A stretch of DNA of 64,000 nt from contig OZ250173.1 of NCBI GenBank assembly GCA_965238075.1, positions 3,072,001 to 3,136,000 of the forward strand. Direction: 5' to 3'. Every line of letters begins with the position of its first letter. The stretch's first letter is position 1. Position numbers and translations under genes: made by a program. The notes below the pieces were generated by a model, which made no database searches, was not told where the DNA came from, and saw only the letters and a program-made list of their open reading frames with translations. Of the stretch, positions 51,357 through 58,284 are shown one piece after another. The DNA is from Candidatus Entotheonellaceae bacterium (GTDB lineage: Bacteria; Tectomicrobia; Entotheonellia; Entotheonellales; Entotheonellaceae).

Positions 51357-51824
51357 ATGGCCATATGGATCAACAATCGCCAGCGGCGCGTGGCACTCAA
51401 TACGCCGTTTGTGAAGAAACAAGCCCTGCGGATGATGGCCTACCTTGGGTGCAGCGAAAACGAGCTCAGCGTGGTCTTCGTGCATGACGAGCGCATGCGG
51501 TCGTTGAATCGCGCTTACCGCTGCAAGGACCGTCCCACCAACGTGCTGGCTTTTCCACAATGCCCAAGCTATGAAGGCGAGCCCCAGACCCTTTTGCTAG
51601 GGGATGTCGTGATTTCGCTGCCGACTGCGGCGCGTGAGGCCTTCGAACTCGGCCAGACGCTTGAGGAACGCGTCGTGTTTCTTCTTGCCCATGGCCTGCT
51701 TCACCTATTGGGCTATGACCATGAGCGGTCCGCTGCCCAACGTCGCCGGATGGAATGTCGCGAACAAGATATTTTCTCGCACCTGAAGGGACAGCCGGCA
51801 TCAACAGAGCGCTGTCAGCCCTGA
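51357..51824 (+). CDS. ybeY: rRNA maturation endoribonuclease YbeY
   Basis: LNRAYR.KDRPTNVLAF, LGDVVIS, HGLLHLLGYDH. Confidence 0.96.
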   Translation: MAIWINNRQRRVALNTPFVKKQALRMMAYLGCSENELSVVFVHDERMRSLNRAYRCKDRPTNVLAFPQCPSYEGEPQTLLLGDVVISLPTAAREAFELGQTLEERVVFLLAHGLLHLLGYDHERSAAQRRRMECREQDIFSHLKGQPASTERCQP

Positions 51825-51847
51825 CCCTGATCAGGACACACCATGTC

Positions 51848-54535
51848 ATGAACACATCAGGTTCAAGCCATCCGCCTCATAGCACTGTTGCCAATCCTCA
51901 ACTCACGCCCATGATGGAGCAGTATGCGAATTTGAAGGCCAAGGCCGGCGACGCGCTGCTCTTTTTTCGCATGGGAGATTTTTACGAGTTGTTTCACGAT
52001 GATGCCATCATCGCCGCCAAAGCCCTCAACATCACGCTGACATCGCGCCAGAAACACCAGGATGATCCGATACCCATGTGCGGGGTTCCTTACCACAGTG
52101 CTGAAGGGTATGTGGAACGCTTGTTGCAGCAGGGATTGAAAGTCGCCATTGCCGAACAGATTGAAGACCCCAGACATGCCGAAGGCTTGGTGAAGCGGGA
52201 CATTATTCGCATCGTCACGCCGGGAACTATCGTCAGCGCGAACTCACTGGAGCCCAAGGTCCACAACTTCCTGGCCTGCATCGCAATTACAACCGACGGG
52301 GCCGGGTTCGCATTTGTCGATGTGTCCACCGGTACCTTCGCGGTCACAACATGGACGTCCGAAGGCCCTTGGCAGCAGGCGCTCAGAGGTGAATATGAGC
52401 GCCTGCAACCGCGGGAAGTCCTCATCCCGAAGCCCCTTGCGATACCTGTCGATATCGTCGAACGCCCTGCAGATCATTTCCCCAACACGCTCCAACCGTG
52501 GGATTCCCAGCATTTCCGCGTAGACCGAGCCTACCGCCGCTTAACGCAGCACTTCTCCGTGCGCTCACTGGAGAGTTTTGGATGTGAAGAACAACCACTC
52601 GCCATTGCGGCGGCCGGTGCCTTGTTGGCCTATGCGTATGAGACGCAGCAAAAAAACATGGTGCACGTACATGGGCTGAATTATTACAACACGGGCGATT
52701 ACATGGTGCTTGACAAGACCACGAGACAAAACTTGGACTTGTTGCCGTCGCCCGCCACACAGGGACGCAATGGGTCCCTCTTGGAAGTCATTGATACCAC
52801 GGTTACGGCCATGGGGGGACGCCTCCTACGCGAGTGGCTGTCGCAGCCCCTGTGTCGGTTGGAGCCCCTCCAAGAGCGACAGGATGCGGTTGCGAACATC
52901 GTCGAGCAATCCGATAGGAGGGCGCGCCTGCGTGACGCTCTGGGAGCCATCGCCGATCTTGAGCGGCTTATGGGTCGGCTGTCGCTCGGCACGGTTAACC
53001 CACGCGAACTCGTGGCCTTGCGCCGCTCTATTGAGGGACTTCCGGGTATTGAAAAGGCGTTGCAGGGTGCCGATAGCGCGCTTCTGACCGGTTTCGGGTC
53101 ACAATGGGACTCTCTGGCCGATCTGGCCGTTCTGATCAAGGAGGCGCTTGTTGATGATCCCCCGGCGACTTTGCGGGACGGGTGGGTCATACGTTCGGAT
53201 TCCTGTCAGGAATTGAAAACGCTTCGGGAGGAGAGCACGTCGGGCAAGAATTGGCTGAGTGAATTGGAAGCACAAGAGCGCGAACGAACGGGCATTTCTT
53301 CACTGCGGGTCGGATTCAACAAGGTGTTCGGGTATTACATCGAGGTGCGCAAGACGTATCTGAACCAGGTGCCGGACAATTACGTGCGCAAACAAACCCT
53401 GGTGAACGCCGAACGTTTCATCGTACCGGTGCTGAAAGACCGTGAAGTACAGATGTTGCGGGCGGCGGAAGAGGCCATCAGTCTGGAGCACCAACTCTAC
53501 GATGCTCTGGTGAAACAACTGGTAGACAACGCCGGACGCTTGCAGCAGATGGCGCGGATTGTGGGCCAGATCGATGTCATTGCTGCACTGGCCCACACGG
53601 CAACGATTCGACGGTATTGTCGCCCGACGCTTGATATGGGTGATGAATTGGCGATTGCGGACGGCCGTCACCCGGTTCTGGAGGTCGTATACCAGGAAGA
53701 GCGTTTCGTGCCGAATGACACCCTGCTAGACCGGGAGGATCAACAGATTCTGCTGCTGACGGGTCCGAACATGGCAGGGAAATCGACGTACATGCGTCAA
53801 GTGGCGCTCAATGTCGTGCTGGGCCAAATCGGCAGTTACGTGCCGGCGCGCAGGGCTCACATCGGCCTGGTTGACCGGATATTTACCCGTGTGGGGGCGC
53901 AGGACGTATTGTCAAAAGGGCAGAGCACCTTCATGGTGGAAATGACCGAAACTGCCAATATCCTGCACAATCTCACGGCTCGGAGTCTCATCTTGCTGGA
54001 TGAAATTGGCAGGGGTACCAGCACCTATGATGGTATGAGCATCGCGTGGGCCGTCATTGAATACATCCACAACCATCGGGGCCTGCGTCCGCGAGCGCTT
54101 TTCGCCACGCATTATCATGAATTGACGAATCTGGCTGAGTGGCTTTCACGGTTGCATAATTTCAACGCTTTGGTTCAGGAGGAGGGGGAACAGATCGTTT
54201 TTCTGCGACACATCGTACCGGGAAGCGCTGATCGCAGCTATGGCATTCAGGTTGCGCGGTTGGCGGGACTTCCGACTTCCGTTGTGTGCCGGGCGAACCA
54301 ATTATTGACACGCCTCGAATCGAGATCAGCCTCTAGCGAATCCGCAGGGGACCACGCCCGCCCTCAGTCCGCCGCTATTCCCGCCCAACAGCCCTATCGA
54401 CAACCTACGCTCTTTGATGATCTTTCGACGCAGTTGTTGGATGAACTGCGAACGACCGCCATAGATGAATTGTCACCGCTGGAAGCTTTGAACAAGTTGG
54501 CGGAGTATCAAGGCAGGGCTCGCCGCCTCCCATAG
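51848..54535 (+). CDS. mutS: DNA mismatch repair protein MutS
   Basis: TPMMEQY, FRMGDFYELF, TGPNMAGKSTYMRQ, STFMVEM, DEIGRGTST, SYGIQVA. Confidence 0.97.
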   Translation: MNTSGSSHPPHSTVANPQLTPMMEQYANLKAKAGDALLFFRMGDFYELFHDDAIIAAKALNITLTSRQKHQDDPIPMCGVPYHSAEGYVERLLQQGLKVAIAEQIEDPRHAEGLVKRDIIRIVTPGTIVSANSLEPKVHNFLACIAITTDGAGFAFVDVSTGTFAVTTWTSEGPWQQALRGEYERLQPREVLIPKPLAIPVDIVERPADHFPNTLQPWDSQHFRVDRAYRRLTQHFSVRSLESFGCEEQPLAIAAAGALLAYAYETQQKNMVHVHGLNYYNTGDYMVLDKTTRQNLDLLPSPATQGRNGSLLEVIDTTVTAMGGRLLREWLSQPLCRLEPLQERQDAVANIVEQSDRRARLRDALGAIADLERLMGRLSLGTVNPRELVALRRSIEGLPGIEKALQGADSALLTGFGSQWDSLADLAVLIKEALVDDPPATLRDGWVIRSDSCQELKTLREESTSGKNWLSELEAQERERTGISSLRVGFNKVFGYYIEVRKTYLNQVPDNYVRKQTLVNAERFIVPVLKDREVQMLRAAEEAISLEHQLYDALVKQLVDNAGRLQQMARIVGQIDVIAALAHTATIRRYCRPTLDMGDELAIADGRHPVLEVVYQEERFVPNDTLLDREDQQILLLTGPNMAGKSTYMRQVALNVVLGQIGSYVPARRAHIGLVDRIFTRVGAQDVLSKGQSTFMVEMTETANILHNLTARSLILLDEIGRGTSTYDGMSIAWAVIEYIHNHRGLRPRALFATHYHELTNLAEWLSRLHNFNALVQEEGEQIVFLRHIVPGSADRSYGIQVARLAGLPTSVVCRANQLLTRLESRSASSESAGDHARPQSAAIPAQQPYRQPTLFDDLSTQLLDELRTTAIDELSPLEALNKLAEYQGRARRLP

Positions 54536-54648: not shown

Positions 54649-55035
54649 ATGTCTCTTAGACGACAGAACCAAGGATCAAACGAGGCTTTGTTTTGGTCAC
54701 TGCTTGCGAGGGCGCGGGTTATGCGCTTGGTCAGGTGTGGGCTATTGGTTTTGGTTCTCGGGGTAGGAGTAGAACTCTATGTGCCTCTTGGTGGTGAAGC
54801 TTCTACCTTCCGCTGGCACGATTTTTCCATCACACTGCCTCTCACCGCATTGATTGCCCGGATCGGATTAGGACTCGTAGGTGGGATGGCTTTGGACGAG
54901 CGCCGCAGAGTTGTCGAATGGTGGGAAATGACCGAGGAGTTCCTGCATGGCATAAGGGACGTTTTGAATTCGCTTCAACTGTCGCCTCGTATTGAACTGC
55001 CTATAGGCTCAACGAGGGCAGGGGACCTTTCATGA
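54649..55035 (+). CDS. Small two-TM membrane protein with degenerate HisKA H-box-like segment
   Basis: Two hydrophobic segments followed by FLHGIRDVLNSL; ends 10 nt before the REC-LpxC gene. Confidence 0.5.
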   Translation: MSLRRQNQGSNEALFWSLLARARVMRLVRCGLLVLVLGVGVELYVPLGGEASTFRWHDFSITLPLTALIARIGLGLVGGMALDERRRVVEWWEMTEEFLHGIRDVLNSLQLSPRIELPIGSTRAGDLS

Positions 55036-55045
55036 GGCGAGTCGA

Positions 55046-56344
55046 ATGACGGAAAGCATACACATGGGAATACGTCGCGTCTTAATTGTTGATGACGACG
55101 CAAGCCTGTCGAGGGCATTAGCTGGCGCACTTAAGGAAGAGGGCTTTCAGGCAATTTGCAGCGTCGATGGACAGGAGGCTCTGAGGCTTGTCCACAGTTT
55201 CCGCCCGGACGTGATGCTCCTTGACATCTGGCTGCCCGGCATGAACGGTATCGAAATCCTGCAAGCTTTGCAGAGCACGGATGTCGCATGTCCAGTCATC
55301 ATGTTGTCAGGCTACGGCACGATTGCCATGGCCGTGAAGGCGATTCAACTTGGAGCTTTCGATTACATTGAAAAGCCTTGTTCGCTCGATAGGCTGGTGG
55401 ATAGCATTAGACAAGCCTGTCCTCCGCGCGATGTCGCAGTCATTTCCCAGTCGTCTTCCGCAACCTCTTCGCTATCGATGGGTCATACCCGTTCAGGCTC
55501 ACCATTTGCGGTTCACCATCCCCAGCGCACGCTGCGCTGCAGTGTGGTTGGATACGGACTGGGACTGCAATCCGGTGTTAAGACGGGCATTATTCTTGAG
55601 CCGATGCCGACCGACAGCGGCATTGTCTTCAGGAACGTTGCAACAGGTGAAACGTTACCGGCCGCTATTGATTTCGTTACGTCCACCAACTTTTGTACGA
55701 CGTTGCATCGAAAAGGTGTCACGGTCAGAACAATCGAGCATCTCATGTCGGCCTTGCACGCTTATGGCATTACCAATTTACTGGTCCAAGTTGGCGACGA
55801 AGTGCCCATTATGGACGGCTCAGCCACCTCCTTCTGTCAGCTTATCGAAGAGGGCGGCGTCGTCGAGCAGGGGGGTGAACTGGAAGAATTCGTTGTGGAC
55901 CGCTGTTATCACGTGGGCCAAATCGACCCGGCGTCCAAATTCATTCTGGTCGAGCCTTACGATGGATTTAAGGTCTCCTACCGCTTGCATTACCCTCAGC
56001 CGTTAGGCATTCAAGAGTTCACGTATGAGCACCGGAATGGGGCGAGTTATCGCTTTGAGATTGCCCCAGCGCGCACCTTTGCGTTTGTGCGTGAGGTGGA
56101 AAAGATGCACGACATGGGACTAATCGCCGGCGGGCGCCTGAATAATGTCATTTTACTGGGCGATGAAAAAATCGTAAATAACGTACAGTTGCGGTTTCCT
56201 GATGAATGTGTTCGGCATAAGGTACTCGACCTCATTGGAGATTTGTACCTGCTTGGCAAAAGTTTGCGCGGGCACGTGCGGGCGAATATGACCGGGCACA
56301 CCGAAAATGTGGCTCTGGTGAAACAGCTTTCCGACGCCCTGTGA
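55046..56344 (+). CDS. lpxC: Response-regulator receiver domain fused to UDP-3-O-acyl-GlcNAc deacetylase
   Basis: REC: VLIVDDD, LLDIWLPGMNG, MLSGYG, DYIEKP. LpxC: QRTL, TIEHLMSAL, EVPIMDGS, ARTF, RHKVLDLIGDL, GH. Confidence 0.93.
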   Translation: MTESIHMGIRRVLIVDDDASLSRALAGALKEEGFQAICSVDGQEALRLVHSFRPDVMLLDIWLPGMNGIEILQALQSTDVACPVIMLSGYGTIAMAVKAIQLGAFDYIEKPCSLDRLVDSIRQACPPRDVAVISQSSSATSSLSMGHTRSGSPFAVHHPQRTLRCSVVGYGLGLQSGVKTGIILEPMPTDSGIVFRNVATGETLPAAIDFVTSTNFCTTLHRKGVTVRTIEHLMSALHAYGITNLLVQVGDEVPIMDGSATSFCQLIEEGGVVEQGGELEEFVVDRCYHVGQIDPASKFILVEPYDGFKVSYRLHYPQPLGIQEFTYEHRNGASYRFEIAPARTFAFVREVEKMHDMGLIAGGRLNNVILLGDEKIVNNVQLRFPDECVRHKVLDLIGDLYLLGKSLRGHVRANMTGHTENVALVKQLSDAL

Positions 56345-56353
56345 GTTGTTGCG

Positions 56354-57094
56354 GTGACCGCTGGAGGAGAGTGCCATTTGAAGGTAAGGTGCAGCGATTG
56401 GCGACGTAAACAGATCAGGCAGCTGCGTCTACCGATCAGTTGTCTATTGGCCGTGTTCATCGGCATGGTGGGGTTCATCGGAGACAGCAGGGGCCTGGAA
56501 CTTGGTACGTTGATTGACAGAATCCAGGTCGCTTATGACCGCATGCAAGCCTTGACCGCTGACTTTCAGCAAGTTGCAACCCTCACATCGATCAACCGGC
56601 AACAGTTTTCGTCAGGCCGTCTGTATATTGAGAAACCTCACTGGATTCGTTGGGAATATGACAACCCGGAAAAACAGACCATCCTTTATAACGGTTCGGC
56701 CTTGCGCATTTACACGCCCAAGCGGCGGCAACTCTTGCAAAGTGTCATCGATGAGAGCACCCGTTCCAGTGTCGCCCTTCTATTTCTTGCCGGAGTCGTT
56801 AAGCTCCGCGATGTTTTCGCCATAACGGCCCTGCCCGAAACCGAGACAGGGCAGATGCTGATCCGCTTATTGCCACGTTCGCGTTTGGCTGGTTTCACTG
56901 AGTTGCGTGCGGCGATTAACCCGCGGAGTTACTTTATAGAAGGTCTGTGGATACATGACCCGATTGGGAACTTTACGGAAATCCGTCTTTCAACGCTCAC
57001 CGTTCACGCAACTTTACCTGCACATACCTTTGAGCTTGATTTGCCTCCAGATACAGAAATACTCAGCCCCAGCGACTTCGCAACCCCCCAGTAA
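56354..57094 (+). CDS. lolA: Outer-membrane lipoprotein carrier protein LolA-like (start uncertain)
   Basis: Signal-like segment, LTADFQQ, SGRLYIEKP..RWEY..P, F.L..PP. Confidence 0.8.
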   Translation: MTAGGECHLKVRCSDWRRKQIRQLRLPISCLLAVFIGMVGFIGDSRGLELGTLIDRIQVAYDRMQALTADFQQVATLTSINRQQFSSGRLYIEKPHWIRWEYDNPEKQTILYNGSALRIYTPKRRQLLQSVIDESTRSSVALLFLAGVVKLRDVFAITALPETETGQMLIRLLPRSRLAGFTELRAAINPRSYFIEGLWIHDPIGNFTEIRLSTLTVHATLPAHTFELDLPPDTEILSPSDFATPQ

Positions 57095-57213
57095 TGGATG
57101 AGCGTCCAGCTTCGGCGGATTTGTCGAGATAAGTCCATCCGAACGGACAGACCTTGGCATGGCAGGACGCGGCGCGAAAATTGACCGCGGGGTTTTTGTA
57201 AAGGGACAACACG

Positions 57214-58284
57214 ATGGAACCGACAGTGGCAGTTTTTATCTTTACGGCATTGCGATTCCTTGCGGTGCTTGGAGCCCTCATCGCCGTGCATGAGTTCGGT
57301 CATTTCATCGTGGCCAAGAAATCCGGCGTGCTTGTCGAACGATTTTCTATTGGATTTGGGCCGCCAATCTGGCGCAAGAAATCGGGTGACACGGAATACC
57401 GCCTTTCGGTAATCCCGTTGGGTGGCTACGTCAAGATGTACGGAGAGGATTTGGATGCCGAAATCAAGGAGAGCGAACGAGAGGGGTCGTTTCAACATCA
57501 ATCGGTGTGGAAACGGATTCCGATTGTAGCGGCAGGTCCGGCATTCAACATTTTCTTTGCGATTGCTCTCATCGCCTTTGTCCAGGTGGTTGGCTATCCG
57601 GTGGAGCAGTCGGTCCATATCGGCCGCATTCTCGAGGGTTCGGCGGCGGCCGAGGCTGGATTGCAAGCGGACGACGAGGTAATCAGGCTGAATGGCCAAG
57701 TCATCAGGCGAATTGAAGATCTCAAGCAACAAATCGTGGCAAGCAGGGGTAGCACGCTTTCCATGCAAATTACTCGAAACGGGCAGGAGCAAAGTCTTCT
57801 CATAACCCCACGCCAGGTTCAGGATGCTGAGGAATGGCGTATTGGCGTGGAACTGCGTCCGGGTAATTTCGTCTTGCAGCGCACCGATCCGTTTTCGGCG
57901 CTCGTTCGCGGTTGCGTTTGGACTTGGCGGATAACGCAGTTGACGTTCACAGGCTTCGGACAGATCATCTCCGGTGCCATCCCGGTTTCGGAAAGTCTTG
58001 CAGGTCCGCTCGGTATTGCGCAGGAAATTAGCCGACAGGCTGACAATGGTTGGCGCAATGTGGTCTTTCTGACCGCTGCCATCAGCGTAAGTTTGGCTAT
58101 TTTGAACCTTCTTCCCATTCCTGTCCTTGATGGTGGCCACTTGCTCTTTTTCGTGATCGAAATCGTTCAAGGAGGGCCTCTCAGCGTGCGCAAACGGGAG
58201 ATTGCTCACCAAGTAGGACTGGTGATATTGGTGTGCCTGATGCTCTTTGCTTTCTACAACGACCTCATGCGTTTGTTCTCCTGA
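57214..58284 (+). CDS. rseP: RIP metalloprotease RseP
   Basis: HEFGH, FSIGFG, PLGGYVKM, one PDZ, NLLPIPVLDGGH. Confidence 0.96.
   Translation: MEPTVAVFIFTALRFLAVLGALIAVHEFGHFIVAKKSGVLVERFSIGFGPPIWRKKSGDTEYRLSVIPLGGYVKMYGEDLDAEIKESEREGSFQHQSVWKRIPIVAAGPAFNIFFAIALIAFVQVVGYPVEQSVHIGRILEGSAAAEAGLQADDEVIRLNGQVIRRIEDLKQQIVASRGSTLSMQITRNGQEQSLLITPRQVQDAEEWRIGVELRPGNFVLQRTDPFSALVRGCVWTWRITQLTFTGFGQIISGAIPVSESLAGPLGIAQEISRQADNGWRNVVFLTAAISVSLAILNLLPIPVLDGGHLLFFVIEIVQGGPLSVRKREIAHQVGLVILVCLMLFAFYNDLMRLFS

Follow-up and report, generated by a model that had tools for sequence, protein, structure and literature searches.

We analysed a 64,000-nt window from Candidatus Entotheonellaceae bacterium (GenBank assembly GCA_965238075.1, contig OZ250173.1, positions 3,072,001 to 3,136,000) and found that the genome's only gene for LpxC, the flux-setting enzyme of lipid A synthesis and a leading antibiotic target, encodes a response-regulator receiver domain (REC) joined to the N-terminal side of the enzyme (nt 55046 to 56344 of the window). 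Our preferred interpretation, which we consider rather probable, is that this housekeeping LpxC works as an enzymatic response regulator and so gates the synthesis of lipid A, carrying an NtrX-type REC on a flexible linker and having lost an ancestral kinase and AAA+ module. That regulation takes place at all, together with its sign and its mechanism, is our inference. If the interpretation is correct, a receiver carried on the enzyme itself, usually behind an NtrY-type kinase, would constitute a direct phospho-switch on outer-membrane synthesis, and the fusion is found across several poorly studied phyla.

A complete receiver joined to a complete LpxC

The gene and its parts, all on the forward strand, are the following.

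55046..56344, +: REC-linker-LpxC open reading frame (ORF; P0001), 432 aa (stop-free translation, Pfam, NCBIfam)
55079..55408, +: receiver domain, residues 12–121, NtrX/NtrC type (Pfam; NtrX is the top NCBIfam receiver match)
55223..55225, +: predicted phospho-acceptor Asp60 codon, in LLDIW (motif position, conservation in relatives)
55409..55522, +: Ser-rich linker (SQSSSATSSLS), residues 122–159, 38 aa, predicted disordered (structure-prediction confidence, substitution rates, lengths in relatives)
55523..56332, +: LpxC domain, residues 160–429 (Pfam, NCBIfam, alignment with E. coli LpxC)

A preceding sequence-only reading of this DNA had described a single 432-aa ORF with a complete REC, a Ser-rich linker and, from about 55523, an LpxC domain with intact zinc and catalytic motifs, and our profile searches and alignments bear out each of these elements. 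The receiver matches PF00072 (Response_reg) with 103.8 bits (cut-off 30.2, E = 7.7e-30, residues 12–121), and the enzyme matches PF03331 with 278.9 bits (cut-off 27, E = 5.7e-83, residues 160–429) as well as the lpxC equivalog TIGR00325 (237.1 bits, cut-off 187.25). The motifs that had been named lie at residues 16–18 (DDD), 58 (LLDIW, with the D60 codon at 55223), 110 (KP), 229 (TIEH), 391 (HKVLD) and 416 (TGH).

All phospho-site residues of the receiver are present, namely the acidic pocket D16–D18, the acceptor D60, S88, the aromatic switch Y107 and K110–P111. These residues are strongly conserved: 117 short-form relatives keep D60 in 112 cases, S88 in 117, Y107 in 116 and K110 in 117, and D16–D18, D60, S88 and Y107 are kept in 6/6 genomes of the genus. 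The NtrX equivalog NF051870 yields 102.9 bits against a cut-off of 600, a match limited to the REC part, and the protein is without the AAA+ and HTH domains that follow the receiver in NtrX. By these comparisons the window protein appears to be derived from the NtrX family without being a member of it.

We aligned the window protein with E. coli LpxC (from locus L014) and 136 fused relatives. The E. coli residues E78, H79, K143 and T191 correspond to E231, H232, K298 and T344 in the window protein, and H238, K239, D242, D246 and H265 correspond to H391, K392, D395, D399 and H418; all nine are invariant or nearly so across the 136 fused relatives. In E. coli numbering, we take the zinc ligands to be H79, H238 and D242 and the catalytic residues to be E78, H265, T191, K239 and D246. 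Two peripheral positions differ in the window's subclade (E. coli H19 to Gln and K262 to Met), and the window LpxC stops at a point near E. coli residue 273, so that the C-terminal tail of the E. coli enzyme is missing. The alignment also contains four positions (residues 181, 240, 248 and 264; E. coli 25, 87, 95 and 112) that are at least 90% conserved in the fused domains, with consensus G, Y, K and C, and shared by at most 10% of stand-alone LpxC; the window protein has Q at 248. These fusion-specific positions could be a REC contact surface, or could reflect mere clade history.

The window gene gives the single PF03331 match in a profile search of the genome, which is one 3.35-Mb contig, and no separate canonical lpxC exists there. 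Since lpxD, fabZ, lpxA and lpxB lie together at 2.344–2.349 Mb, the lipid A pathway is present. The sole copy and the presence of these four genes provide indirect support that the protein functions as a deacetylase on UDP-3-O-acyl-GlcNAc.

We regard as practically negligible the alternative that the fusion is an artefact, whether an assembly chimera or a frameshift, or that this LpxC is an inactive paralogue. An orthologous 432-aa ORF occurs in 5/5 other genomes of the genus (89–96% identity) and in hundreds of independent assemblies, and the single-contig genome holds one LpxC match. Contigs from four runs of four studies align here, two of them over the full stretch and the other two across the junction of REC and LpxC, with no indels at the window gene in any of the four; one of the runs, which is near-identical, may have supplied the assembly itself. 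Two of the four are RNA libraries, one contig of which is 47 kb long, and contigs cannot show transcription. The genus-wide ORF and the bridging contigs rule out a chimera. Against an inactive paralogue stand the complete set of catalytic residues and the low ratio of nonsynonymous to synonymous substitution rates (dN/dS) of the LpxC domain (0.11).

The fusion is widespread and appears to have a single origin

A search for the combination of Response_reg and LpxC, which the sequence-only reading had proposed, showed the architecture to be widespread, with at least 576 related loci in a pattern scan of one genome per species. For each of the best 80, the match to the query extends from about residue 10 to about 430. 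By label, relatives of the window are Candidatus Entotheonella or Tectimicrobiota, and the labels of further metagenome-assembled genomes include Binatia, Myxococcota, Thermodesulfobacteriota, Thermoanaerobaculia, Thermodesulfovibrionia, Dadabacteria, Bdellovibrionota and others, some of them plainly wrong (e.g. 'Mycobacterium'). In 5/5 genomes tested from other groups, the fused gene is the only PF03331 match.

Within the phylum, 16 of 17 species genomes carry one LpxC locus (G011, 82% complete, has none), and no stand-alone lpxC was seen among the 17. These 16 loci, and separately the best 150 representatives at 50% identity as classified by domain models, are distributed as follows.

Phylum, short fusions: 12
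Phylum, long REC-AAA+-LpxC: 3 (G008, G014, G015)
Phylum, fragment at a contig end: 1 (G016)
Representatives, REC-LpxC: 44/150
Representatives, REC-AAA-LpxC: 15/150
Representatives, AAA-LpxC (fragments): 6/150
Representatives, LpxC alone (including 2 with the domain match split in two): 78/150
Representatives, REC only, no LpxC domain: 7/150

A phylogeny of 123 LpxC domains, built with IQ-TREE (quick search, LG+G4), places every one of the 53 fused domains in a single clade of 58 rows (Shimodaira–Hasegawa-like approximate likelihood ratio test 90), which suggests that they have a single origin. The remaining five rows of this clade are four 'alone' proteins and one with an unassigned N-terminal extension, and may reflect gene calls that were cut short or fusions that later split. 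The linker varies from 36 to 75 aa across relatives.

In the long form, LpxC is preceded by a complete NtrX-like regulator made up of REC, sigma-54-type AAA+, a lid and, in some members, HTH_8. The top NCBIfam receiver match of the long form is again NtrX, and with REC-AAA+ retained it reaches 276 bits against the NtrX cut-off of 600. In 19 long forms (P0041–P0120) the AAA+ module is without GAFTGA, has a full Walker A in 3/19 and does not conserve the Walker B Glu, so in sequence the AAA+ module of the NtrX::LpxC forms looks degenerate in the long-form clade.

A separate NCBI record (P0300, 1217 aa) joins Ser/Thr Pkinase and TPR domains to an LpxC domain 37% identical to that of the query; here LpxC is fused to signalling domains in a second, unrelated manner.

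In relatives, an NtrY-like kinase accompanies the fusion

The genes next to the fusion were clustered in the 80 best loci, of which five hold less than 1 kb of upstream sequence and 75 are informative. A same-strand kinase gene lies directly upstream in 46/80 loci (46/75 informative), encoding 730–800 aa and mostly within 60 nt, and 42 of these 46 kinases were scanned: all 42 have NtrY_N, HAMP, PAS, HisKA and HATPase_c, the architecture of NtrY as known from Rhodobacter sphaeroides and Caulobacter crescentus. In 43/46 kinase-linked loci, no other receiver or regulator is found within 6 kb. Genomes in which no kinase adjoins the fusion were also covered, and 4/5 of them encode a full-length NtrY-like kinase elsewhere (E = 1e-181 to 1e-299), with 1.5-kb flanks that contain no regulator. 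Moreover, the DHp region around the phospho-His of the NtrY-like kinases is 53–81% identical across phyla, as expected for a conserved partner.

The best explanation of these genomic associations is that, family-wide, the fusion protein would be the cognate regulator of an NtrY-like membrane histidine kinase. The sequence-only reading had proposed that flux into lipopolysaccharide (LPS) may be gated by a two-component relay, and for the family as a whole the upstream kinases give this proposal strong support. The same cannot be said of the window's own genome, where the kinase has been lost and no orphan kinase was found.

The kinase has been lost in the window's lineage

The genes that flank the fusion form a conserved block, represented in the window by the following features.

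51755..54535, +: mutS, conserved upstream flank of the block (synteny comparison)
54649..55035, +: 128-aa ORF with a hydrophobic middle, in the slot of the relatives' ntrY (no NCBIfam family match)
56354..57094, +: LolA-like gene, starting 9 nt past the lpxC stop codon (TIGR00547, synteny)
57214..58284, +: rseP, site-2 protease, conserved downstream flank (TIGR00054, synteny)

In two genomes of the same class (G014 and G015) the order is mutS, ntrY-like kinase, REC-AAA-LpxC, lolA and rseP, and a genome of the same family (G008) has the same order with its kinase and AAA+ matches spread over several frames. In another genome of the family (G009) and in the window, the order is mutS, REC-LpxC, lolA, rseP, rimP and nusA. 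The ntrY-like kinase gene and the AAA+ module are thus missing from an otherwise conserved block and have been lost in the window's lineage, making the window copy the reduced, kinase-less end state of the REC-LpxC family. In G008 (L106, G008:C79), mutS also matches in several frames, which may be due to sequencing frameshifts or to real decay.

Searches for a displaced kinase agree with its loss. NtrY_N has no match in this genome, and no NtrY ortholog was found in five genomes of the same family, all with the short form (best matches 29–36% identical and partial). The DHp regions of this genome's own kinases are at most 31% identical to those of the NtrY-like kinases. Thus, a cognate histidine kinase accompanies the receiver in relatives (46/80 loci) and not in this genome.

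Several candidates for a partner or its remains were considered and rejected. The best own-genome match to the NtrY-like kinases (L102 5471–7012; HAMP-PAS-HisKA-HATPase) lies directly behind an OmpR-type regulator, and a 297-aa ORF with a weak HATPase_c match (L110 1510–2403) has no HisKA domain or H-box. The 128-aa ORF is found in 2/80 loci and conserved within the genus only; its residues 85–113 bear a loose resemblance to the NtrY H-box (W, E, H, I, L and QLS in common). It may be a relic of ntrY, but the resemblance is not significant (hhalign probability 2%; 73/2000 shuffles reach its score).

For a 3.35-Mb genome, the two-component repertoire is very small, with eight histidine kinases. 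Two regulators have no adjacent kinase: REC-LpxC, and an OmpR-type regulator beside a phosphate porin and a PstS-like gene (~542 kb).

Several observations weigh against phosphorylation-dependent gating in the window's organism, and with it against our interpretation. All eight histidine kinases found adjoin regulators of their own, leaving no partner or orphan kinase, and no acetate kinase was found in this genome; phospho-control may therefore be defunct here. The orthologue in the nearest relative (G005, locus L016; 96% identity) has K110R at the otherwise invariant receiver Lys. Asp60 is lost in 7/136 relatives in the alignment of fused proteins, which argues that the receiver can work without phosphorylation. 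The tree adds a point about history: long forms are restricted to a 44-row subclade, short and long forms are interleaved with starred branches that force at least six changes, and the basal fused lineages are short, so the tree does not tell whether the long form gave rise to the short or the short to the long.

In an alternative interpretation, the receiver no longer signals in this genome and instead supports LpxC structurally or allosterically, independent of phosphorylation, as a functional pseudo-receiver needed for folding, dimerisation or basal activity. The absence of the ancestral NtrY gene, of an orphan kinase and of an acetate kinase, the K110R change in G005 and the intact LpxC of relatives with D60 changed to G, N or E are all in keeping with it, as is the structure prediction described below. 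However, D16–D18, D60, S88, Y107 and K110 are all retained in the window and in 5/6 genomes of the genus, the short-form relatives keep D60 and K110 at the frequencies given above, and a purely structural role does not require an acidic pocket. We consider this alternative unlikely, though one to be taken seriously. Under the gating interpretation, the receiver in this genome would either take phosphate from a non-cognate donor, for example by cross-talk from one of the eight kinases, or act as a docked allosteric module.

The receiver remains under selection and may pack against LpxC

We compared substitution rates in the three parts of the protein across 15 pairs among the six genomes of the genus.

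REC: dN 0.041, dS 0.329, dN/dS 0.12
LpxC: dN 0.031, dS 0.278, dN/dS 0.11
Linker: dN 0.217, dS 0.350, dN/dS 0.62

These ratios indicate that the receiver is under purifying selection as strong as that on LpxC, despite the loss of the kinase, and that the linker evolves almost neutrally. A receiver still selected after kinase loss would allow phosphorylation and docking to be asked of it as separate roles.

AlphaFold2 with 100 diverse fused sequences predicted the structure with a mean predicted local distance difference test (pLDDT) of 89.7 (five models, 88.6–89.7) and a predicted template-modelling score (pTM) of 0.85; pLDDT fell below 50 only at residues 1–6 and 129–154. This run supersedes one with 70 close sequences, which was uneven (pLDDT 75.8; five models, 46–76). 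We estimate that a pTM of about 0.65 would be expected if the two domains were each confident but positioned independently of one another, so the predicted value hints at a defined, fixed packing of REC on LpxC. The argument for docking is indirect, drawn from pLDDT and pTM, and this too tempers our interpretation. A complex prediction between the LpxC domain (155–432) and REC (1–127) scored 0.08 against a mark of 0.32 and gives no evidence either way.

The predicted sign of control

We propose that an ancestral NtrX::LpxC would have lost its kinase gene and AAA+ module to leave an orphan REC-LpxC that is still selected, and that phosphorylation of Asp60 would change LpxC output directly, bypassing transcription. 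The unphosphorylated protein would be active, and phosphorylation, where it occurs, would lower its activity or availability. Three lines of evidence suggest this sign, by sequence comparison and by analogy. The unphosphorylated form should be active because a kinase-less lineage relies on this LpxC alone, and because D60G or D60N stands beside a full set of LpxC catalytic residues in 4/136 relatives, which may or may not be sole copies. Restraint by phosphorylation is suggested by R. sphaeroides, where loss of NtrYX raises lpxC mRNA by 8.8-fold and raises LPS, according to the portions available of two sources (PMC7240162, PMC12444477).

The receiver could instead set the abundance of LpxC rather than its catalysis, its phosphorylation state exposing or hiding a degradation or adaptor signal in place of the FtsH/LapB/YejM route; we judge this improbable. 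Receiver-dependent proteolysis has precedents in RssB and CtrA. The window LpxC has no E. coli-type C-terminal FtsH degron, FtsH itself not having been searched for, and a search of the genome with PF11893 gave no match to YejM. The only match to PF18073 is RadA. On the other side, no protease or adaptor gene is conserved beside the fusion in relatives, where the genes most often found nearby are ruvCAB, yebC and those of type II secretion. Control of abundance is also compatible with allosteric control and does not exclude the latter.

The PF18073 match had been a LapB candidate (G000:C1:1863785–1865269, equal to L015 1471–2955) and was rejected as the N-terminal zinc ribbon of RadA/Sms. The model gives this zinc ribbon 47.9 bits, above its cut-off, and matches Gram-positive control genomes too; PF18073 alone is not a safe LapB marker.

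Comparison with known regulators of LpxC

The family resembles the NtrY/NtrX system in the architecture of its kinases and in the receivers of both short and long forms, whose top NCBIfam match is NtrX. It differs in the covalent attachment of the window's receiver to the enzyme, in the lack of AAA+ and HTH domains (103 bits against 600) and in the absence of NtrY from the genome. In R. sphaeroides and C. crescentus, NtrX binds DNA, governs a large regulon and affects lpxC indirectly, as described in the part of the source available (PMC7240162).

Desulfovibrio vulgaris DVU2931/DVU2934 offers a second comparison. In the available text of PMC3333781, lpxC is the one target mapped for the sigma-54 response regulator DVU2934, and in S. 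fumaroxidans lpxC adjoins an operon orthologous to DVU2931/DVU2934. On that account, both this system and the REC-LpxC family would pair a dedicated two-component system with lpxC through an NtrC-family regulator; there, however, control is transcriptional and the regulator and enzyme are separate proteins. The adjacency in S. fumaroxidans may plausibly represent a stage before gene fusion.

Response regulators with enzymatic output are well established, and include CheB (REC-methylesterase), PleD (REC-GGDEF) and RpfG (REC-HD-GYP). The window protein shares their N-terminal receiver, flexible linker and C-terminal enzyme, and its output would likewise be controlled post-translationally. Where these proteins end in signalling enzymes, it ends in one that catalyses the committed step of an essential biosynthetic pathway. 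A scheme of the CheB type, in which the unphosphorylated receiver blocks the enzyme and phosphorylation relieves the block, fits less well here because, without a kinase, the lineage depends on the unphosphorylated enzyme being active.

E. coli LpxC, controlled through FtsH, LapB and YejM, belongs to the same enzyme family and shares all catalytic and zinc-binding residues with the window protein, which differs in having no C-terminal degron tail, no LapB or YejM found, and the H19 and K262 replacements. In the bifunctional LpxC-FabZ (NF009667), LpxC is likewise part of a fusion, with a pathway enzyme on its C-terminal side in place of the N-terminal signalling domain seen here, and the window protein scores 201 bits against the NF009667 cut-off of 465.

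The sequence-only reading knew of no characterised example of the fusion, and a literature search over titles and the beginnings of abstracts, with subscription journals, architecture pages and supplements outside its scope, likewise found no paper describing one. The architecture must nonetheless be visible in domain databases. In the available part of a 2025 review, 'The regulation of lipid A biosynthesis', the terms receiver, fusion, fused and response regulator are all absent, NtrYX appears only as a transcriptional influence on lpxC, and the known controls of LpxC are proteolysis, PA-1/LapB-type routes and transcription (PMC12444477).

A wider proposal, in which our confidence falls somewhat short of even, is that NtrY acting on REC::LpxC would be an old dedicated envelope circuit in many non-proteobacterial phyla, that the alphaproteobacterial transcriptional link between NtrYX and lpxC would be another form of the same ancient partnership, and that the kinase-less lineage would be a natural experiment showing a second, kinase-independent role of the receiver on LpxC. 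By the logic of gene fusion, the REC-LpxC family also gives separate grounds for regarding NtrYX and LpxC as functional partners, and helps to explain the envelope phenotypes of ntrYX mutants.

Local neighbourhood of the gene

A Shine-Dalgarno-like GAGG can be read directly from the sequence ahead of the start codon:

55034..55037, +: GAGG, 8 nt before the ATG at 55046

Scans for promoters and terminators returned sites no more numerous than in shuffled sequence. The gene had been placed directly upstream of lolA and rseP, and both neighbours were found there, the LolA-like gene with 99 bits to TIGR00547, under the cut-off of 112, and RseP with 295 bits to TIGR00054, over its cut-off. Since only 9 nt separate them, lpxC and the LolA-like gene are probably co-transcribed. 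Together, lpxC, the lolA-like gene and rseP (55046–58284) form an envelope-biogenesis cluster. In E. coli (locus L109), rseP lies directly before bamA-skp-lpxD-fabZ-lpxA-lpxB; a link between rseP and lipid A genes thus recurs there in a different arrangement.

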